DNA of 64,000 nucleotides, taken from positions 32,001-96,000 of IMG/VR virus record IMGVR_UViG_3300027804_002812. One strand, written 5' to 3'. Position numbers and translations under genes: made by a program. The DNA is from a virus (Duplodnaviria > Caudoviricetes). The notes beneath the pieces were generated by a model. The model ran no database searches. It was given only the letters and a program-made list of their open reading frames with translations, and had not been told where the DNA came from. Positions 55,985 through 64,000 of this stretch are shown one piece after another. The first letter of the stretch is position 1. The number at the start of each line of letters is the position of its first letter.

Positions 55985-58774
55985 CTAGATACTCTTAATT
56001 TTTTCTTCCCAACCTTCTTCCGCCAAATCATACATATAGAAAGGGCTTAATCCTCTTCTTTCCCAATACTTTAATTCTGCTTCAGTAATATCCAATACAT
56101 CTTCTTTTAATCTGTCTTGGTCTCCATCCGCTAAAGGTTGTCCGTTAATCAACTCACATTGTGATGTTGTAAAAATTCCTCTCTTTTCAGGTTCATTAAC
56201 AATTAAACCGTTTCTAACTTCTTCCTGAAATACAACCATAAGAGGTTCAATTCTTTTATTAAATGTAACAATTGCTCTTGGTACATTGTAATCACCAGTC
56301 AGGTCAGGATTATTATCAAGAATGTCTTTATCTAACATATAACAATTAACCACAACGCCATCTTTAACTTCTAAAGATTTAGGGTCTTGAAGTTTATTTG
56401 CTGCGTTCAAATCTTTTAGTTGTTTCACAGTCATTTTCTGAACATCTCCTTGAGAAGCCTTTGTACCGTTATTAACATACATAATTACGTCTCCCAAGTT
56501 TACATTTAGTCCTTCCTGAATAGCAAGTTCCATGTGTGCCATACGAGACATACTATTACCCGACTTAGTTTTGGTTGTTAATCTTTTCTTGTATTCATCA
56601 ATACCCAACTTCACTTTTGCTCTCTGTGCGATTTTGGAAAGAGGAATCTTCTTGTCATAAATCTTCTGAAGATATTCATAGTAATATTCAACAAATTCTT
56701 TACCATCACCTTTAAGTAACATCTTAATACCTTTATCCAAAAACTCTTCAATATAGATTGGAAGTTTCTTTGATTTGATACTATTACCCGTAAGTTTGAT
56801 TTTCCCCTTCGCATCCATAACTGCGTAGTTTTTACGAGCTAAGTTAATACAGGACGGCCACACACCATCAGTATCCAATGCCATCTCACCCCTCATGAAT
56901 ATGTCATTATATTCCGCAACGTCCGCTTCAGGACCATAATATTCTTTACCCAACTTCACTTTCCAATTCAATCCACGTCCAACATAAACTCTGTTTTTAG
57001 CATCTTCAGGTGTGGAAAAGTTCACACCGTCAGTATCCATTACCAATGGAACATAACCTTTCGCCATGAAGAATTTAATCATTTGACGTAGATATTGTCT
57101 ACCTGTACAAGTAATTTGTTCACCCATATACATGTCACCCCAAGCATAAACCTGAGGAGCGGATAAAGCGCCGAACATGGAGTTAATAAAGATTTTAATT
57201 GGCAATTGTTTGTTACCATAGGACTCTGACTTTTTACGGTCGGTTTCATAGTATTGTTCTGCCAAGTTTTTGTATTTGATACGAGTATCACGGAACCACT
57301 TCAACATACCCTTCATTGCACCCGTAACATCACAGTCAGGAAATACATCGTGTACCAACTGAATTGATGGGTATAGAGACGAGAAGTCAAGTTTGAGTAC
57401 GTCTTTACTATATCCCACCTTAAGTAGTCTGGATAGACCACCAACGAAGTCAGTTTTAGATTCTTTGGCAGGAATTGCAATCTTATGTTTATAAGACCAC
57501 GCCATCATCAACATTTTCCACAATGTTGCAGTACCCATAGTGGATACTCTCTCATAAGTGGTTGGAATCATCGCCGCCAACAAGAATGAACCTTGGTTAA
57601 ATTCTTGGTCAACTTTCAAGGTTTCGTCCAAGTCATCGTCAAGATATCTTTCAACCAAGTTGTCACCTGTCACCTTGAGATAAACATCAGACCTCTCATT
57701 ACAAATTTCATCTATCTTGGGATCTTGTCCAACTTTACGATAGTTACCGTTTTGAGTATTCAGCCAAAACTCTTCCTTCTTAGCATAAAATGGACCAATG
57801 TCCAAGTGATCAATGTAAACTCGGTCAGGTGCTTCAGCGTTAATATATTGTGTAATATACTTCAAACCCGCCGACTTGATACTCGAGTTGATTGCCTGTG
57901 CTCTACGAACCGCATGAATAATATCAATAACATTGTAACCCCAAATAGAAGTTTGAGTATATGACTCAACCTCATTTGCAAGTTTCAACATACTTTCTTT
58001 TCTTGTGAAAGAATGGTCGGGATGTAATGAACGACAAATCTTCTTGGGGTCAATACCCAAGATTTTACATCGTTCGAATATCCAATGCCAGTCGAAGTTT
58101 GCCGAATTGTACCCACCAATAATACTTGGTTTCAATTCATTAATAATACTAAAAAACTCTATGATGGCACCTCGTTCTTGAGATTCATCAATACATTCAA
58201 TTACTTTGTGGTATCCTTTGTTTGTCTTAATTCCAATCATGAATATACGACCGTCTTTTGGTTCCAAGGCGGTCGTTTCTAAGTCAAATACAAGGCGGGT
58301 AACTTGATTATAATCTTCAAACCCTTTGAACAATCTTTTTTCTTTTTGTACCAAGTATTGTTCGACAGGAGAAAGAATCGTAATTTTTTCTTTTGTTCTT
58401 TCTCCCCATGGGTCACATCCACCTTCTCTAAAAAATTGTACAAGTTCACGGTATCCCTTTAGAGATTTAACCATAAAGGTCATACCCTTTTCTAATCTTG
58501 GATTACCGTGTGTCTCGAGTTTATCAATCATGATACCATGTTTGGTCATGGCTTCTTTCTGTGCGGCTTTGGAACCACCATAAAAGTTAATGTCTCGTAA
58601 ATCACCAACCCACGCAAATGGAGTAAACGTATCCTTACGGATTTCTTTACCTTTGCCTGGAATTTCTTTGATTTTGTAAATGGAGTTGGAAGCGTAGTCG
58701 AACTCAATGGCGACTATAAATTCTTCGGGGTCGTTTCCGTGTAGGAACGATTCAATTTCTTTTTCTGTAAACAT
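55985..58774 (-). CDS. Family B DNA polymerase with 3'-5' exonuclease
   Basis: ExoI FDLETT, ExoII GYNSANFD, motif A DFSSLYPSI, motif B KIFINSMFG, motif C MDTDG, and RKNY. No intein seen. Confidence 0.95.
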   Translation of the reverse strand: MFTEKEIESFLHGNDPEEFIVAIEFDYASNSIYKIKEIPGKGKEIRKDTFTPFAWVGDLRDINFYGGSKAAQKEAMTKHGIMIDKLETHGNPRLEKGMTFMVKSLKGYRELVQFFREGGCDPWGERTKEKITILSPVEQYLVQKEKRLFKGFEDYNQVTRLVFDLETTALEPKDGRIFMIGIKTNKGYHKVIECIDESQERGAIIEFFSIINELKPSIIGGYNSANFDWHWIFERCKILGIDPKKICRSLHPDHSFTRKESMLKLANEVESYTQTSIWGYNVIDIIHAVRRAQAINSSIKSAGLKYITQYINAEAPDRVYIDHLDIGPFYAKKEEFWLNTQNGNYRKVGQDPKIDEICNERSDVYLKVTGDNLVERYLDDDLDETLKVDQEFNQGSFLLAAMIPTTYERVSTMGTATLWKMLMMAWSYKHKIAIPAKESKTDFVGGLSRLLKVGYSKDVLKLDFSSLYPSIQLVHDVFPDCDVTGAMKGMLKWFRDTRIKYKNLAEQYYETDRKKSESYGNKQLPIKIFINSMFGALSAPQVYAWGDMYMGEQITCTGRQYLRQMIKFFMAKGYVPLVMDTDGVNFSTPEDAKNRVYVGRGLNWKVKLGKEYYGPEADVAEYNDIFMRGEMALDTDGVWPSCINLARKNYAVMDAKGKIKLTGNSIKSKKLPIYIEEFLDKGIKMLLKGDGKEFVEYYYEYLQKIYDKKIPLSKIAQRAKVKLGIDEYKKRLTTKTKSGNSMSRMAHMELAIQEGLNVNLGDVIMYVNNGTKASQGDVQKMTVKQLKDLNAANKLQDPKSLEVKDGVVVNCYMLDKDILDNNPDLTGDYNVPRAIVTFNKRIEPLMVVFQEEVRNGLIVNEPEKRGIFTTSQCELINGQPLADGDQDRLKEDVLDITEAELKYWERRGLSPFYMYDLAEEGWEEKIKSI

Positions 58775-58838
58775 TTTCTATACACGAGTGGTTTATTGGC
58801 TTTCACACTAACGTGAAGTTTACCTTACTCATCGAGTA

Positions 58839-58869
58839 TAAATATAACGGAAATTTGTGTCTTGTCAAA
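58839..58869 (-). promoter_or_regulatory. Bacteroidota-type promoter for the DNA polymerase gene
   Basis: TTTG-N19-TATATTTA; the -7 box has one mismatch to TAnnTTTG and overlaps a TATTTATA motif. Confidence 0.6.
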
Positions 58870-59247
58870 TTAGCAACATGCAGTTTCAGAAATAAAACTG
58901 TCTTGTATATTAATAAAAAGTTCTTCTCTGATTGGAAGAATCAAACTACCTTCGTCATTTCTGATTAGGAATTGACCCTGATATCTTCCAGGAGTATTTG
59001 TGTCTCTTGAGGTGAACTTGAAATAAATATAGTATTCGGGAGCGGCTCCCAAAGGTAAAATTAAATTAACGATTTCACAAGGTGCTGAAACAATCTTGGG
59101 TATTCCTGTTTCCACATCAATCATGGTAAAAAATATAGTCGAGACCTCAAGGTCTTCCATGAGTTGTTGGTAACCTGCTCTTCCGTCTTTTACCACCTGC
59201 ATTTTTAACACAGGGAGAGTTGCGTTCTTTTTAATATAAAATTCCAT
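58870..59247 (-). CDS. BppU N-terminal-like small structural protein
   Basis: FYIKKNATLPVLKMQV...FTSRDTNTPGRYQGQFLI..G.LILP pattern; TATTTATT lies 3 nt upstream. Confidence 0.5.
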   Translation of the reverse strand: MEFYIKKNATLPVLKMQVVKDGRAGYQQLMEDLEVSTIFFTMIDVETGIPKIVSAPCEIVNLILPLGAAPEYYIYFKFTSRDTNTPGRYQGQFLIRNDEGSLILPIREELFINIQDSFISETACC

Positions 59248-59263
59248 AACAATAAATATACTG

Positions 59264-60940
59264 TTATGACTCTTTACGAAGCCCCCTATCGTAATGTTCG
59301 AATCTATCGTGTTCTGTTGGAGTTAGTAGTAATAATCCAGGGTTTAATTCCCCCTTTTTTACAAGTTGATACATGTGAGACATCCAAGTTTGTTCAAATG
59401 GGTGTGCCCACGTTGTATCTAAAAACATTTTTTGATTTCCTGTTCTTGAAACAATTTGAGGCCAGTTACAGTAGTAGACTTCACCTTTGGTGTAAGGTAT
59501 ACCTTTATAAGATAAAACCGCATGGAATTCTGTCTTAGGGGCATTAGGATCTAATCCAATTTCAGGTAGTCTAGGTTTGTCAGGCCAAAATTCGGTTCTT
59601 ATGTGTTGAGGCACATTATACCATGACCACTGAGTACCGTTATCTCCATAAAACTCACTGTAATTTAACTTTAAGAAATCTAAATTTTCTTTTTTAATAA
59701 TTTCTAAAGACTTACTGTATAAGTTAGGGGCATATCTATTGAATCCATTTCTACAAACCTTACCTTCATTTGGATAGAAAAACATATCATCTTCAAAAAA
59801 CAAGTAATAATCCAAATCAGTTTCATTTTGGAAATGTTCTGCTACCCATTGTCTTCCCCCACATATCCCTAAATTATCTTTTTTAATATGTTCAAATCCA
59901 AACTCATTACAAATTTCCAAGTATTCTTCGGTAGTTGACAAATCACTTGAATTGTCTAATAAAAATTTACTAGTTTTGTTGAGATAATCTTTATCGTACG
60001 CTAACATAGAATCAATCAATGTCTTGAATTGTTTTGGACTATTGAATGTGATAACATACAGACCTACTTTGTTTGTATCTAAATTATTTACAACTTGTAC
60101 AGAACTTTCATTTTTTACTTTCAGGGTATCATTTTTTAAGTCTTCGAAGAATTTACCAACTAATCCATTTCCTTCGATTTCAAAATAATTGAATAGGTCT
60201 GAATGTTTATAGCACATGATACTGAATATCGATTCTTCAGTACCCATGTATCCTTCTTCTAAAGTACTTTTTAACAATCCATAATAAATTCCATTAACAT
60301 CACTAATTGTGTGTTTCGGGCCACCAAAAAATCCACCTCGAGCGACTTTAGTTACTTTATTACCGGCAATGGAATTTAACTTGTTATATTCAAATCCATG
60401 AATTTCTCTTTCCGCATCATAAGGGAAACAAATGAATGAAAATTTTGAAATGTATTTAGATAAGTTGTTCAAAACTTTATCGTGAGTAAAATAGCCTGGA
60501 TGCACTGTATTAGTTAATCCACCATCAATCCAAAACATATACTCCGAATTAAATTGGTCCATGATTTTGGCATCATGTAACAAAAACACTTTTGACATGA
60601 CCAAAGGATTATAGTTTTCCAAACGACCTTGTGTAGATTCCTTTAACCACCCCGACAAATTATACCATTCGGGGTTTGTTCTAATTTTTTGAATTAACGG
60701 AAAAAATTCAGAGTTAGTAAACCAACTAAGTGGTCGGGTGATGAATTGAGTATTTTCAGTATTTCTTCTTTCAAACACAAAAGTTTTTAATTCTTCATCT
60801 CCGAACACTATTAGATTTTCTTCAACCTTTAATAGTTGTTCGAATTTATCCAAATAGTGCTGATAAGACCTACTCCAACCTTCAGTTAGTTCTCCACGAC
60901 CAATGTCCCAAATACCTGTGACTAAAGTTATATTACTCAT
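59264..60940 (-). CDS. Two-domain glycosyltransferase: HtrL/YibB-like N-terminus plus GT-A (GT2-like) C-terminus
   Basis: TLVTGIWDIGR, FWIDGG, GGFFGG and GTEESIF motifs; second domain has LLDNS, ICGGR and YLFFEDDM (DXD). Confidence 0.7.
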   Translation of the reverse strand: MSNITLVTGIWDIGRGELTEGWSRSYQHYLDKFEQLLKVEENLIVFGDEELKTFVFERRNTENTQFITRPLSWFTNSEFFPLIQKIRTNPEWYNLSGWLKESTQGRLENYNPLVMSKVFLLHDAKIMDQFNSEYMFWIDGGLTNTVHPGYFTHDKVLNNLSKYISKFSFICFPYDAEREIHGFEYNKLNSIAGNKVTKVARGGFFGGPKHTISDVNGIYYGLLKSTLEEGYMGTEESIFSIMCYKHSDLFNYFEIEGNGLVGKFFEDLKNDTLKVKNESSVQVVNNLDTNKVGLYVITFNSPKQFKTLIDSMLAYDKDYLNKTSKFLLDNSSDLSTTEEYLEICNEFGFEHIKKDNLGICGGRQWVAEHFQNETDLDYYLFFEDDMFFYPNEGKVCRNGFNRYAPNLYSKSLEIIKKENLDFLKLNYSEFYGDNGTQWSWYNVPQHIRTEFWPDKPRLPEIGLDPNAPKTEFHAVLSYKGIPYTKGEVYYCNWPQIVSRTGNQKMFLDTTWAHPFEQTWMSHMYQLVKKGELNPGLLLLTPTEHDRFEHYDRGLRKES

Positions 60941-61814
60941 ATATTTTGTTAAATTCTTCTAATATTTTATAAAAACTTTTATTTTGTTGGAATAATTCTT
61001 CCGACGTTCCTCTTGGAGCATTATCTCTACACCACCAAATATCAAAATGTTTTCTTTCAAAAAGTTCTTTATGATTATAATACATAAGGGTCATTATATG
61101 TTCTTCATGTGGAATACCTTTGTCTTCAGATATAATGTTTTGAATATAGGTTTCAAACAAAGTAACCATTTCGTCCCACTTACTTTTGTGACCACCAAAA
61201 AGCCCTCCAATAATATGTAATCCTCTATCGTATTCTTTATACCATTTTCTGTCTACAGTACCTGACCAAAAGTTTCTATCGTTTTCTTTTCCGATAATTA
61301 AAAACTTATCTTTGGTTTCTTCAATAACATTTTTCAAAAATTCATTATTAAATAAGGAACTTTCATAATATCTTCTAACTAAACCATCGTGAGTCAAATA
61401 TTTTAATGGAATCAAACCGCAATGAGATAAACCAGCGTCAATCCAATAATAATAGTCGTATGATTTATCTTCGTTCCACCACCAATGAAATTTTGAATAT
61501 TGAATTTCTACACATCTATCAGACTTTTTGGTTTCGTCAATATTCTTATATTGATTAATTAAATCTCTGAATTTTGTTTGTGAAATATCAAATGTTTGAA
61601 ATTTTAATTTCTCGGGGGAAATTTGATTTTCTTCATAAAAGAATTTAATTAGTGAATCTAATTCTCTATCTGAAGTGTAACACAAAAAATCTGCGTCTGT
61701 CATCTTTAGTAATGATAACAAACTATATCTATAATGACCTCCCCTGTTTGTTCTTCCACCAAACTCAGTTCCATATAAGTCACTATATATCGAAGTTATA
61801 AATTTAACTGACAT
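60933..61814 (-). CDS. HtrL/YibB (WlaTC)-like glycosyltransferase
   Basis: YYWIDAGL, IGGLFGG and EEHIMTLM motifs; paralogous to the N-domain of the next gene. Confidence 0.65.
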   Translation of the reverse strand: MSVKFITSIYSDLYGTEFGGRTNRGGHYRYSLLSLLKMTDADFLCYTSDRELDSLIKFFYEENQISPEKLKFQTFDISQTKFRDLINQYKNIDETKKSDRCVEIQYSKFHWWWNEDKSYDYYYWIDAGLSHCGLIPLKYLTHDGLVRRYYESSLFNNEFLKNVIEETKDKFLIIGKENDRNFWSGTVDRKWYKEYDRGLHIIGGLFGGHKSKWDEMVTLFETYIQNIISEDKGIPHEEHIMTLMYYNHKELFERKHFDIWWCRDNAPRGTSEELFQQNKSFYKILEEFNKIYE

Positions 61815-62550
61815 AATAAAATTTATGATGTTCGTTTTTATCTTTCATTTCTTGGACTTTATACTGGTCCATAAATTCATTAGGTATTTTTCTTGGTGTC
61901 CACCTGTTCCAATTATATGTTTGCATATACCAATTGTTGTACATACCTTCTGATATGTTTGAGTAATTCGATTTCTGTGGAGCAATTGGTAATATTGGCG
62001 AATAACTTTGATGTTTTTGAACTATAAACTGATAGGTGTAATCGTCTAATGCAAAGTAATATTCTCCACTTGTAGTAAACGCGGTTTGCGAAATATCAAA
62101 AATTTTGTCATAAATTGACTCATCATAAATCACCATGTTAGCACCGTAAATCCCTCTACATTCTGACGGAGCATCAGGAGTATTTGTCATATCAAACAAT
62201 AACTCATACTTGTCACTAACATTGATAGGTCTATTTTGTGTTGGTCCCAAATTAAACATTGCGAACTCCAAATCAGAACAAGTTTCTTCGATTTGTTCCA
62301 ATAAATCTTTCGCGTATGGCATAAACCCGCAATCGTCTTCAATTAACATCACTCTTGGATATTTTCTTTCTTGAGCAATTTTAATAATTTCGAATGTGGA
62401 TTTGGTAATACCCATATATGAGTTTGTATCTATTGCTGAAAACCTTTCAAAATCCCAACCAATGTATTCCATTTCTTTGGTTATTGATTCCATTCTATCA
62501 GGTCTTCTATCCAAGTTTATGACAAACTTTGGTATTTCTGAAAACTTCAT
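61804..62550 (-). CDS. Glycosyltransferase family 25
   Basis: FVINLDRRPDRM...FERFSAID and LIEDD motifs. Confidence 0.8.
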   Translation of the reverse strand: MKFSEIPKFVINLDRRPDRMESITKEMEYIGWDFERFSAIDTNSYMGITKSTFEIIKIAQERKYPRVMLIEDDCGFMPYAKDLLEQIEETCSDLEFAMFNLGPTQNRPINVSDKYELLFDMTNTPDAPSECRGIYGANMVIYDESIYDKIFDISQTAFTTSGEYYFALDDYTYQFIVQKHQSYSPILPIAPQKSNYSNISEGMYNNWYMQTYNWNRWTPRKIPNEFMDQYKVQEMKDKNEHHKFYYVS

Positions 62551-63812
62551 TAACTAACGTGATTGTGATTTAATTGTCCGGTTAATCTATCACACCAACC
62601 TTTAGATTCTGAGTGAGGCCATACCACCCAATATGATGGTAGTACTGTTGTAGGAAATTCTCTCCATACTTTACAGTATTTGTCAGGGTCTTTGAAAAAT
62701 CCATTAATTTCATTTTTGTCGGCATCTTTTCTGAAAATGGTCTCATCATTTGGTCCGTGGAAGGCAACAACCCAAAAATCATAATCCTTTTCAGGAACAC
62801 TTGAATATCCAACATCAATACAATGTTTATAGATAGTTGAGAAACTATTTTTCCATTCTTCCTCATCTTCAATTAGAGGACTTGGTGGATATTTTTTGTC
62901 TATACAATGTTGGTCAACTGCTCTTTTTTCAAATAGTAAACCGGAATATTTTTCATATTCTCTGAGTGTTCTGACTGTACCAAACCCATAAGGTCCGTCA
63001 TGACCTTCTTGAGTTTCACCATCCATACCAAATAGTTTTCTATTTGTTAAGTGAGAATGTTTGTTTTTGTCTCCCCACGTTTTATCGTCGTCCCATTGTT
63101 TGGTTCTACCTTTACGAGTATATTCATGATAGACAACAGGAATGTGTGGGTGGAACAAATCATAACCCCAAGTATATGCTCTTGCCGCAATAGAAATTTC
63201 TTCTCCGTGAAAATAGTATTCTGGGTTGTGTTGTACCTCTGTTGAGAATTGTCCGAGTGTAAAACAGAAGTGAGCAGAATAGAATCTTGCGGTAACAGGT
63301 TTTGTCATCTCTCTCCAACCTGGTATTGTCTCAGGTAAAAAGAATACTGCACCTTCGGGAATGAATCTATCAAATGCCATTCTCCAAGCGTCTTGTGCTC
63401 GACCTGCGGGATCGTTTTCAGGGTCAAATGAAGGAACATAACCTGTTAACAAAGGTTTCTTATATCCATCCTTTTGTAATCCTTTAATCATTTTGATTAA
63501 TACATCATCCCAGTCCTTGATGAATCTCATGTGAGAATCAATTTGAAGTGTGTATGTTTCACCATCATAAAGTTGTTGTGTCAGATTTCTAGCGAAACAA
63601 ACTCCCTTAGATTCCTGATATGGAATATCCAAGATTTTGAATCGTTTATCTTTTCTATACTCATCCAAATTATCGAATCCGTCAGATTCACTATATTGTC
63701 TTGCAATACCGAAAACCAAATTATTTGGTTTTTTTGCATTTGCAATCATGTCTTTAAGGGTTGGAACCAACTGAGGGTCTCTGTAAGAAGCAATCTGAAT
63801 AAAAATTTTCAT
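62550..63812 (-). CDS. GT60-like (Skp1-hydroxyproline type) N-acetylglucosaminyltransferase
   Basis: IFIQIASYRDP, GVCFARN, QIDSHMRF..WD, YSAHFCF, YFHGEEI and DLFHP..VVYHEYTR motifs. Start moved to MKIF at 63812. Confidence 0.78.
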   Translation of the reverse strand: MKIFIQIASYRDPQLVPTLKDMIANAKKPNNLVFGIARQYSESDGFDNLDEYRKDKRFKILDIPYQESKGVCFARNLTQQLYDGETYTLQIDSHMRFIKDWDDVLIKMIKGLQKDGYKKPLLTGYVPSFDPENDPAGRAQDAWRMAFDRFIPEGAVFFLPETIPGWREMTKPVTARFYSAHFCFTLGQFSTEVQHNPEYYFHGEEISIAARAYTWGYDLFHPHIPVVYHEYTRKGRTKQWDDDKTWGDKNKHSHLTNRKLFGMDGETQEGHDGPYGFGTVRTLREYEKYSGLLFEKRAVDQHCIDKKYPPSPLIEDEEEWKNSFSTIYKHCIDVGYSSVPEKDYDFWVVAFHGPNDETIFRKDADKNEINGFFKDPDKYCKVWREFPTTVLPSYWVVWPHSESKGWCDRLTGQLNHNHVS

Positions 63813-63835: not shown

Positions 63836-63866
63836 ATAAAAAAACCCTCCGATAAGTGGAGGGTTT
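63836..63866 (-). terminator. Intrinsic terminator upstream of the glycosyltransferase cluster
   Basis: AAACCCTCC-7 nt loop-GGAGGGTTT followed by a U-rich run on the minus strand. Confidence 0.75.
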
Positions 63867-63890
63867 CAAGCGTATAATTATGAATTATTT

Positions 63891-64000
63891 TTAATCTGTA
63901 ATTGTTACTACAAGGGAATCCGATGCCTGTAATGGCACCGCACTTAGAGTCGTACTTATGTTTACTGGAGGAGATATCGGTGTTGGGCCAGATATTGTTA
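63891..64000 (-). CDS. 3' end of an upstream gene with Ser/Thr/Pro-rich C-terminus (partial); absent from the ORF track
   Basis: ...TISGPTPISPPVNISTTLSAVPLQASDSLVVTITD* with the stop at 63891-63893. Confidence 0.6.
   Translation of the reverse strand, partial: TISGPTPISPPVNISTTLSAVPLQASDSLVVTITD

Follow-up and report, generated by a model that had tools for sequence, protein, structure and literature searches.

The window analyzed here, a stretch of 64,000 nt, comes from the 326-kb genome of a freshwater phage and carries on its minus strand (63812..59264) an operon of four co-directional ORFs. They overlap by 1, 11 and 8 nt and are translationally coupled, in agreement with the four overlapping genes described in a first-pass annotation. 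The features of the module and its flanks are as follows.

63891..64000, minus strand: 3' end of a 334-aa Thr/Pro-rich gene, the first of four candidate acceptor genes
63841..63867, minus strand: intrinsic-terminator-like hairpin and T-run, separating the GT60 start from the Thr/Pro-rich gene ahead of it
62550..63812, minus strand: gene 1, GT60-type putative initiating glycosyltransferase (420 aa from ATG; 439 aa from an upstream TTG)
61804..62550, minus strand: gene 2, GT25-like putative extension glycosyltransferase (248 aa)
60933..61814, minus strand: gene 3, HtrL-like single-domain protein, presumed glycosyltransferase (293 aa)
59264..60940, minus strand: gene 4, fusion of HtrL-like and GT-A domains (558 aa)
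60131..60940, minus strand: HtrL_YibB-like N-terminal domain of gene 4 (residues 1 to ~270; PF09612)
59264..60088, minus strand: GT-A/GT2-like C-terminal domain of gene 4 (residues ~285-558; DNSSD and E383-D-D)
58870..59247, minus strand: conserved 125-aa gene behind the operon, present in 76 related loci
55985..58774, beyond the 125-aa gene: DNA polymerase B, identified by domain search

Five glycosyltransferase domains had been proposed for the four genes, with a GT60-like enzyme in the lead. Gene 1 matched PF11397 ('GlcNAc') at 226 bits (cut-off 21), covering model positions 2-44 and 95-351 of 352, and phrog_24687 at 545 bits. It comprises a GT-A catalytic domain (residues ~1-325) followed by a conserved, beta-rich C-terminal domain of about 90 residues (~327-413). 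Its DxH metal motif is D92-S-H94; neither D92 nor H94 varies among 18 sequences with identities as low as 28%. No solved structure was matched at the sequence level. When the PDB was searched with the AF2 model of gene 1 (pLDDT 89.7), the top 29 entries were all ppGalNAc-transferases (GT27), with Z scores of 18.9-21.8 and rmsd of 3.3-4.0 Å over 259-283 residues at 10-14% identity; the next fold class, generic GT-A enzymes, dropped to Z 16.3 or less. Because these matches span residues 1-330, the fold of the C-terminal domain was barely probed. Family match, metal motif and nearest peptide-acting folds uphold the GT60-like assignment, and structurally the model points to a mucin-type polypeptide transferase, not one of the core/O-antigen type. 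By analogy with the GT60 family, the donor sugar is most likely GlcNAc, and a putative transfer with retention from UDP-GlcNAc to a protein hydroxyl (Thr/Ser or hydroxyproline) has contextual support from the neighbouring Thr/Pro tracts.

Gene 2 was confirmed as GT25-like. It scored 31.8 bits against PF01755 (cut-off 24) over an alignment of only 40 N-terminal residues (7-47), one of its orthologues scored 47 bits, and a profile of 11 orthologues matched the GT25 domain of human procollagen galactosyltransferase 1 (COLGALT1) and Mimivirus R655 (E 2.4e-5 to 1.7e-4). An E-D-D motif at about residues 70-73 is invariant among orthologues. No other slot of the module varies as much: identities are 40-98% (median 54%) across 74 related loci, compared with 84-97% for the GT60 enzyme.

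Two HtrL/YibB-like domains had been claimed, one of which was recognized directly: residues 3-257 of gene 4 matched PF09612 (HtrL_YibB) at 76.7 bits (cut-off 24.1), the sole match to this family in the genome. An E. coli YibB orthologue was considered for this domain and rejected, as the NCBIfam YibB equivalog scored 80 bits against a cut-off of 265. All three families named in the first-pass annotation (GlcNAc, Glyco_transf_25 and HtrL_YibB) therefore scored above cut-off, in genes 1, 2 and 4, respectively. The second HtrL-like domain, gene 3, gave no Pfam match at E 10 and no PF09612 match in the genome-level search. It aligned with the N-terminal domain of gene 4 in hhalign (95% probability, E 2.8e-8, 214 columns), with the motifs WID(A/G)G, GG(L/F)FGG and EE in common, and matched XacN1 ORF332 at 31% identity. 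Since its relationship to the neighbouring HtrL-like domain is at the profile level only, gene 3 is best called a remote paralogue.

The fifth domain, the C-terminal part of gene 4 (~285-558), was partly confirmed as GT-A/GT2-like through indirect support. Its own sequence had no Pfam or PDB sequence match even at E 10, but 3 of 15 stand-alone relatives matched PF00535 (GT2; best E 1.8e-5), a language model places it close to GT2 and HtrL+GT2 clusters of viral proteins, and it contains the DNSSD and EDD motifs. A low-confidence model of gene 4 (pLDDT 59) resembles the tandem two-domain GT-A enzymes LH3, LARGE1, K4CP and Mimivirus R699, and GlyE, an extender of serine-rich repeats, was also among its fold matches.

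We then considered the proteins encoded around the operon. The Ser/Thr/Pro-rich gene end noted ahead of the operon proved to be the last 110 nt of the 334-aa gene, which runs off the window to genome position 96895; this protein is 31% Thr and has a 179-residue Thr/Pro tract outside the window. It belongs to a block of four co-directional, fibre-like candidate acceptor genes (genome 95891-102391) that are Thr/Pro- or Gly-Thr-Ser-rich and lie within a long run of large same-strand ORFs. Their Ser/Thr/Pro-rich tracts, mucin-like or collagen-like, are 54 to 181 residues long and hold ~318 Ser and Thr in total; genome-wide, 10 of 325 ORFs have such tracts, four of them here. The first-pass annotation had placed the Ser/Thr-rich acceptors inside the window; the real Thr/Pro tracts fall just past its edge. 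The 794-aa protein of this block has collagen repeats (PF01391, E 6.6e-23) and tail-fibre PHROG matches (E 3e-25), making it the one of the four with direct similarity to virion proteins; a virion location for the other three is assumed. Membrane segments and signal peptides were predicted in none of the four enzymes or candidate acceptors, which points to a cytoplasmic route.

The terminator ahead of the GT60 start has a 10-bp stem with 5 GC pairs, followed by TTTATTTTAT; given its strength, the fibre-like genes and the operon are neighbours and not one transcript, an observation that we counted against virion glycosylation. On the other side, 16 nt behind the operon, the 125-aa gene is 63-99% identical across the 76 related loci. 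It had been described as a BppU-like structural gene, a description that the family search did not support: no Pfam family, including BppU_N (PF10651), was matched at E 10. Its language-model look-alikes fall in clusters where 12% of members carry BppU_N, a weak lead by which it is possibly a small Ig-like (BppU_N-like) protein. The next large gene encodes DNA polymerase B. The operon lies beside the polymerase throughout this phage clade, and within a few kb of the polymerase gene in Xanthomonas and Stenotrophomonas phages (XacN1, Xoo-sp13 and RAS14); this neighbourhood was likewise counted against virion glycosylation.

The rest of the genome was searched for NDP-sugar enzymes and 2OG-Fe(II) oxygenases, as had been proposed. 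An epimerase and a UDP-glucose dehydrogenase lie 12-16 kb from the operon, and three matches to PF13640 (2OG-Fe(II) oxygenase) at 312-322 kb. A phosphoglycosyl-transferase, the initiating enzyme on lipid carriers, of either family was not found in the phage genome. Base-hypermodification genes had been reported as absent from view, and the genome search agreed: the sole thymidylate-synthase homologue is a canonical ThyA (TIGR03284, 311 bits against a cut-off of 108), and no hydroxymethylase-type homologue, Tet/JBP or TAGT was found, the Tet/JBP search having no informative positive control.

The 80 related phage loci belong to a single clade and have inherited their gene order, so that their agreement does not amount to 80 independent observations. 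In each of the 65 related IMG/VR loci whose flanks are long enough, a Ser/Thr/Pro-rich ORF lies upstream on the same strand, usually ~80 nt away; the linkage is kept even though the genes themselves differ greatly in length and sequence. Related phages also keep the initiator and the fusion and swap the enzymes between them, which include GT10, GT7, PLOD-GT and RXYLT1-like enzymes and methyltransferases. This resembles an O-antigen cassette and is consistent with diversifying selection on a glycan exposed at the surface. The cultured phage XacN1 has an orthologous module in the same order, its ORF334 being 46.6% identical to the GT60 enzyme; in its neighbourhood, a single short Pro/Thr linker was found, in a 3313-aa neighbour. 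Virion proteins of XacN1 stain as glycoproteins with periodate-Schiff, and its authors suggested that the enzymes responsible are ORF328 and ORF334 (PMC5852040). The stain specifies neither the proteins nor the enzymes involved.

Bacterial contigs, from Cytophagales and Gemmatimonadota, also carry the GT60 gene paired with a homologue of the 558-aa fusion. In Jiulongibacter sediminis (1.3 Mb contig) and an Arcticibacterium MAG (667 kb), the pair adjoins a (TPTPTPS)n-repeat protein, and in Jiulongibacter a UDP-glucose dehydrogenase and an epimerase are nearby as well. At its N terminus, the bacterial Thr/Pro partner has a hydrophobic segment that contains Arg-Arg; this suggests that the protein is exported to the cell surface and is not part of a phage. 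In a Gemmatimonadaceae locus, the call of an upstream Thr/Pro-rich ORF is uncertain because of the 68% G+C.

Given the GT60/GT27-like fold, the linkage to putative acceptors and the absence of both a lipid-carrier initiator and a DNA-hydroxylation partner, virion-protein O-glycosylation by a soluble, cytoplasmic mucin-type module is the best reading, to which we assign a probability of about 0.6. The initiator-plus-extender set acting on virion proteins, as first proposed, is therefore supported: the fold, the upstream acceptors in 65 of 65 loci, the bacterial linkage and the XacN1 stain all point this way. As four coupled transferase genes lie directly behind the phage's own fibre-like proteins, the operon most likely sugar-coats those proteins. 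In the order of steps that we infer, the GT60-type enzyme would place the first HexNAc from a UDP-sugar onto Thr/Ser hydroxyls in the long Thr/Pro tracts, and possibly in the Gly-Thr-Ser collagen-like repeats, of the products of the genes directly upstream, of which at least one is tail-fibre-like. The GT25-like enzyme, the HtrL-like protein and the HtrL+GT-A fusion would then extend this sugar stepwise, with up to four further transfers, and the two-domain fusion, if bifunctional, could also build a repeating unit. Nucleotide sugars would come from the host and from the phage epimerase and UDP-glucose dehydrogenase. Exchange of the enzymes between initiator and fusion in related phages would alter the glycan.

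The sugars could also be placed on proteins other than those of the virion, either Thr/Pro proteins that are released at lysis or act in the cell, or host targets. Three of the four upstream proteins being without demonstrated virion homology, the exported, cell-surface appearance of the bacterial partner and the terminator that uncouples the operon from the fibre-like genes would all suit such a role. We nevertheless consider it unlikely, as the 794-aa neighbour has tail-fibre matches, the phage Thr/Pro proteins are without export signals, the block is embedded in a long same-strand run of large ORFs and the particle of a sister phage, XacN1, carries glycoprotein (PMC5852040). Remodelling, in the course of infection, of an envelope glycan of the host (lipooligosaccharide, O-antigen or capsule), with a block to superinfection or release of progeny as the outcome, has been proposed for the sugar clusters of jumbo cyanophages, and Iyer et al. 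read jumbo-phage glycosyltransferase clusters in this way (PMC7824862). Where GT25 and HtrL_YibB have been characterised in cells, they do belong to lipooligosaccharide loci (PMC4172580), a point that we counted against virion glycosylation, and the cassette-like variation of the middle enzymes recalls O-antigen loci. Against this, the conserved lead enzyme is structurally of the polypeptide type, neither family of phosphoglycosyl-transferase is represented in the genome, and linkage to a Ser/Thr/Pro gene is kept throughout the phage clade and recurs in two Cytophagales genomes, leaving envelope remodelling quite improbable.

Glycosylation of phage DNA bases, as by the T4 glucosyltransferases or TET-associated glycosyltransferases, would sit well with the adjoining DNA polymerase B, a proximity recurring in XacN1, Xoo-sp13 and RAS14, and with weak TAGT matches (E 0.023) in 2 of 15 relatives of the gene 4 C-terminal domain. 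The canonical ThyA as the only thymidylate-synthase homologue and the lack of Tet/JBP or TAGT matches in the genome speak against it, as do the peptide-acting nearest folds of the lead enzyme and the bacterial chromosomes in which the GT60 and fusion pair adjoins Thr/Pro proteins; we regard this explanation as very improbable.

Among known enzymes, the closest to the initiator by sequence family are the GT60 polypeptide alpha-GlcNAc-transferases of protists (Dictyostelium Skp1 Gnt1 and Trypanosoma cruzi), with which it has PF11397 and the DxH motif in common. It is soluble like Gnt1, and its presumed acceptors are Thr-rich and mucin-like, as for the protist pp-GlcNAc-transferases (PMC8724618), but it is encoded by a phage and by bacteria and has the conserved C-terminal beta-rich domain. 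In structure, its catalytic domain is nearest to GT27 (human GalNAc-T1, T2, T4, T7, T10 and T12, Drosophila PGANT9 and Toxoplasma GalNAc-T3), whose catalytic-then-C-terminal layout it also has. GT27 enzymes carry a ricin lectin domain and reside in the Golgi as type II membrane proteins, whereas the phage enzyme is soluble with a smaller C-terminal domain; GT60 enzymes are described as differing from GT27 in having no ricin-like lectin domain (PMC8724618).

The glycosylation of serine-rich-repeat adhesins in Gram-positives (GtfA/B with GlyA-G and Gtf3) also combines a cytoplasmic O-GlcNAc-type initiator with variable extenders on Ser/Thr repeats, but the GtfA/B initiator is GT-B and ours GT-A, the accessory Sec system is absent here and the repeats are Thr/Pro and not Ser-rich. 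The 558-aa fusion parallels LARGE1, K4CP and LH3 in its two GT-A-like halves, with a UDP-glucose dehydrogenase nearby as glucuronate polymers need; the comparison is of folds, from the low-confidence model (pLDDT 59), with no sequence similarity, and a polymerase activity of the fusion is pure conjecture.

Virus-encoded virion glycosylation is exemplified by the capsid glycans of chlorovirus PBCV-1 and the fibril glycosylation of giant viruses. For mycobacteriophages, it was described by Freeman et al. (2023), as cited in PMC12582341. As in these systems and XacN1, soluble transferases here lie beside structural genes and would need no secretory pathway to decorate the particle. An orthologous gene of XacN1 has already been suggested as a glycosylation enzyme (PMC5852040), and our literature search found no paper linking GT60 to phage protein glycosylation. 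The freshwater phage module would be of a known kind, differing from known virion-glycosylation systems in its GT60/GT27-like initiator, its long Thr/Pro tracts as presumed acceptors and its swappable enzyme cassette. The likely benefit to these phages would be a hydrated, protease-resistant and antigenically variable coat on their fibres.

The operon belongs to a phage record of 326,291 bp that is judged complete and of which the window covers positions 32001-96000, and its four enzyme genes are followed on the same strand by a small gene and a DNA polymerase gene.

Genes of the operon and its downstream neighbours (window positions)
63812..62550, minus strand, GT60-type gene, 420 aa from ATG
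62550..61804, minus strand, GT25-like gene, 248 aa
61814..60933, minus strand, '293' gene (HtrL-like), 293 aa
60940..59264, minus strand, '558' gene (HtrL-like and GT-A fusion), 558 aa
59247..58870, minus strand, small gene, 125 aa
58774..55985, minus strand, DNA polymerase B gene, 929 aa

Overlaps of 1, 11 and 8 nt indicate that the four enzyme genes are translationally coupled, while a gap of 16 nt separates '558' from the 125-aa gene. Between the stop of the upstream gene and the GT60 start, the sequence can form a strong terminator-like hairpin, with a T-run (63867-63841), so the operon is probably transcribed separately. A scan for sigma-70 promoters returned 27 matches, below the shuffled expectation of 33.9, and an enriched TATAAATA motif was uninformative for the timing of expression. 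Of 149 upstream regions across the whole genome, 41 contain the element ATATTTAT(A/T), where 1.9 would be expected (one example is in the region of window 58837-58844). Most copies lie 4-20 nt ahead of the start codon, and the element precedes structural, replication and small genes without distinction. It is probably a promoter or start-site element of this phage clade; the exact ATATTTAT element is missing ahead of the GT60 gene. In an array at 230-238 kb of the genome, ATATTTAT(A/T) often stands directly after a GGTGGGG/CCAACCCC terminator. Two metatranscriptome runs contained only 5-6% of the sampled words. In one 2017 freshwater metatranscriptome library, short contigs matched the polymerase, '558' and GT25-like genes with 0-1 differences (window 57978-58182, 60336-60553 and 62229-62412, respectively), so a nearly identical phage was present in that sample; since contigs can neither reveal strand nor exclude DNA carry-over, we did not count these matches as evidence of expression.

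Profile searches bore out the GT60, GT25 and HtrL_YibB assignments of the first-pass annotation. The GT60-type protein matched PF11397 at 226 bits (cut-off 21) and a phage glycosyltransferase PHROG at 545 bits, and its AlphaFold model, built from 18 sequences with identity down to 28%, was confident (pLDDT 89.7, pTM 0.85). The first 40 Foldseek matches were polypeptide GalNAc-transferases, as were all 29 best entries of a second-look alignment (Z 18.9-21.8; rmsd 3.3-4.0 Å across 259-283 residues), with a drop to Z ≤16.3 for generic GT-A enzymes such as SpsA and LARGE1. PDB sequence searches with the protein and its profile found no match at E 1, and the fold matches included no GT60 structure; neither result bears on family membership. 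The DxH motif is D92-S-H94, with D92 and H94 invariant, and a conserved, beta-rich C-terminal domain (around residues 327-413) sits where GT27 enzymes have a lectin domain. Judged by the nearest folds of its model, the lead enzyme belongs with enzymes that act on peptides; its predicted fold resembles that of animal enzymes, and it is likely the starter of a chain. Protist GT60 enzymes initiate mucin-type chains by placing GlcNAc onto Ser/Thr-rich domains (review, PMC8724618). Relatives of the protein were found in 340 viral contigs of IMG/VR and in >7000 clusters at 90% identity in a large protein collection.

The GT25-like protein scored 31.8 bits (GT25 cut-off 24) in a match confined to its first 40 residues; a profile built from 11 orthologues matched the GT25 domain of human procollagen galactosyltransferase 1 and Mimivirus R655, and E-D-D is invariant. 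The N-half of '558' matched HtrL_YibB at 76.7 bits and is not an orthologue of E. coli YibB. The '293' protein, for which a Pfam search gave no match, aligned with this half at 95% probability; its AcrID1 match (22.9 bits, cut-off 30) was judged spurious. The proposed count of five glycosyltransferase domains thus stands, although the fifth, the C-half of '558', is less secure, as searches gave no direct match. The pointers to a GT2-like GT-A domain come from its relatives, its language-model look-alikes, its motifs and a weak fold; AlphaFold, given 13 close sequences, modelled '558' poorly (pLDDT 59), and the fold matches of this model were taken as a hint only. A later representative search with '558' returned 1259 relatives. 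The description of the gene behind the operon as BppU-like found no support in Pfam, which gave no BppU match for the 125-aa product even at E 10; the resemblance is a language-model lead only.

Four co-directional genes upstream of the operon, beyond the window edge (genome 95891-102391), encode candidate acceptors.

Candidate acceptor proteins encoded upstream of the operon
334-aa protein, 179-residue tract with 83 Thr and 31 Pro
187-aa protein, 54-residue tract
794-aa protein, Gly-Thr-Ser collagen-like repeats without proline, tail-fibre PHROG matches
811-aa protein, 181-residue tract

Ser and Thr summed over these tracts amount to 318. Ser/Thr/Pro-rich tracts occur in 10 of the 325 ORFs of the genome, four of them upstream of the operon and four flanking a large sugar island at the genome ends. 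Further low-complexity proteins lie outside the window and far from sugar clusters, namely a 415-aa Thr/Pro-rich protein (genome 150091-151338) and a 434-aa protein with an 83-residue, nearly pure serine tract (188135-189439). No membrane segments or signal peptides were predicted in the operon enzymes or the four candidate acceptors. We discarded the idea that the GT25-like enzyme performs hydroxylysine-type collagen glycosylation, the collagen-like repeats being Gly-Thr-Ser with 0-1 Lys and 0-1 Pro.

Divergent from the upstream genes and 12-16 kb further on, a second sugar cluster (genome 105090-112109, plus strand; retrieved stretch L003:9290-16309) encodes a GT1-like enzyme (phrog_7162), a 3'-5' exonuclease, a nucleotide-sugar epimerase, a 541-aa GT2+GT4 fusion and a UDP-glucose dehydrogenase, so that the search for NDP-sugar enzymes suggested at first pass succeeded with the epimerase and the dehydrogenase. 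The parallel search for a 2OG-Fe(II) prolyl hydroxylase yielded three PF13640 oxygenase matches (42, 37 and 24 bits) in the large sugar island (genome 312344-321891; stretches L085-L087), but these lie 215 kb from the operon and the best of them is only weakly FlmC-like (27 bits). Hydroxyproline-linked GlcNAc, as on Skp1, is possible.

Among related phages, the 80 best of the 340 IMG/VR loci share a constant order of fibre-like genes, GT60, GT25-like, '293', '558', 125-aa gene and polymerase. GT60 is the most conserved module protein (84-97% identity) and the GT25-like protein the least (40-98%, median 54%). The interval from GT60 to '558' is larger by 1-5 kb in 13 of 79 loci, where it holds genes for methyltransferases, an RXYLT1-like protein and transferases of GT2, GT7, GT10 and PLOD type. 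The ends of the module are therefore constant and the genes between them can be swapped, an arrangement like that of an O-antigen locus. Some related phages carry 5-7 extra genes after GT60, including GT10 (fucosyltransferase-type), GT7, PLOD-type, RXYLT1-like and methyltransferase genes (retrieved stretches L021:10885-16756, L012:3664-7474 and L076:3620-7225). Such families are best known from animal protein glycosylation. In the window, G+C falls to 0.303 at 60001-62000, across the GT25-like and '293' genes, against about 0.34 elsewhere; these two are the module's most variable genes in related phages, and the dip would fit an exchange of cassettes. Each of the 65 loci whose upstream flank spans 1.5 kb or more has a same-strand Ser/Thr/Pro-rich ORF there, an agreement that, because the loci form one clade, mainly reflects retention despite the fast change of fibre-like genes.

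Megablast of the operon against cultured phages gave no match, and relatives were found at the protein level only: a GT60 protein with 44-49% identity occurs in XacN1, Xoo-sp13, RAS14 and CM1. The order in XacN1 and Xoo-sp13 is GT60, carbamoyltransferase, '293'-like, a 246- or 247-aa gene and '558'-like, and RAS14 keeps this order except for the 246-aa gene, which it lacks. Each of these three modules converges, downstream of baseplate genes, on genes whose products exceed 3100 residues. Periodate-Schiff staining of XacN1 virion proteins revealed at least two glycoprotein bands, for which the authors proposed ORF328 and ORF334 as the responsible enzymes (PMC5852040); ORF328 is a GT9 gene and ORF334 the GT60 orthologue. 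This stain is the sole experimental support for virion glycosylation by the module, and it is indirect.

A bacterial scan with one genome per species recovered 11 GT60 loci, four of them on long chromosomal contigs.

Bacterial GT60 loci on long contigs
Jiulongibacter sediminis, contig of 1.3 Mb (retrieved stretch L098:2943-13145)
Arcticibacterium MAG, contig of 667 kb (retrieved stretch L103:6645-12471)
Gemmatimonadaceae MAG, contig of 1.17 Mb
Cytophagaceae MAG, contig of 133 kb

All four carry, after the GT60 gene, a homologue of the 558-aa fusion, which in Jiulongibacter is joined to an FkbM methyltransferase; ORF calls in the Gemmatimonadaceae contig are less reliable because of its G+C of 68%. 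In Cytophagales, all three loci have a 523-aa ORF between the two genes, a carbamoyltransferase in Jiulongibacter, where it was scanned. Next to the genes of the two loci with low G+C (Jiulongibacter and Arcticibacterium), a protein of 262 or 326 aa is encoded that consists largely of (TPTPTPS)n and has a hydrophobic N-terminal segment containing Arg-Arg; the Jiulongibacter locus adds a UDP-glucose dehydrogenase, an epimerase and a second PF11397 gene. The Cytophagales chromosomal module thus combines a (TPTPTPS)n protein, one or two PF11397 genes, the 523-aa ORF and the HtrL+GT-A fusion, and we know of no description of it. Of the independent arguments that the enzyme pair acts on Thr/Pro tracts, the strongest is this recurrence beyond the phage clade with the genes differently ordered.

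Taken together, virion-protein O-glycosylation by the operon is the best-supported interpretation, with a probability of roughly 0.6, and the first-pass observation was largely right. Action of the module on proteins other than those of the virion seems unlikely. We likewise doubt that the enzymes remodel a host envelope glycan: cellular GT25 and HtrL genes do occur in a lipooligosaccharide context (PMC4172580) and jumbo-phage sugar clusters have been so read in print (PMC7824862), but neither phosphoglycosyl-transferase family was found in the genome and the lead enzyme is, by its model, of the peptide-acting type. Glycosylation of phage DNA, at which only the adjoining polymerase gene hints, is highly improbable: at first pass no base-hypermodification genes were visible in the window, the single TS-family gene is a canonical ThyA, and neither Tet/JBP (in a search run without a positive control) nor TAGT was found in the genome.

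That a phage may glycosylate its own particle is not a new idea, and the XacN1 authors have already named the orthologue. To our knowledge, virion glycosylation is documented for few phages only; it alters particle recognition. More speculatively, and with considerable doubt, mucin-type O-glycosylation, by a GT60/GT27-like polypeptide HexNAc-transferase on Thr/Pro tracts, might not be a eukaryotic invention: an undescribed cytoplasmic system would be common to Bacteroidota, Gemmatimonadota and a very abundant freshwater jumbo-phage clade, the conserved two-domain partner polymerising glucuronate-containing repeats onto the first sugar to give a strain-variable fibre glycocalyx. In the literature searched, we found no description of the mucin-type nature, the architecture of fixed ends and variable middle, or the bacterial presence of the system. 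The cultured relatives XacN1, Xoo-sp13 and RAS14 make virion-protein O-glycosylation by such a module directly testable. If confirmed, it would place mucin-type chemistry in bacteria and phages, provide a compact soluble enzyme set that puts defined O-glycans on proteins in the bacterial cytoplasm and explain the long Thr/Pro 'linkers' in many phage fibres.
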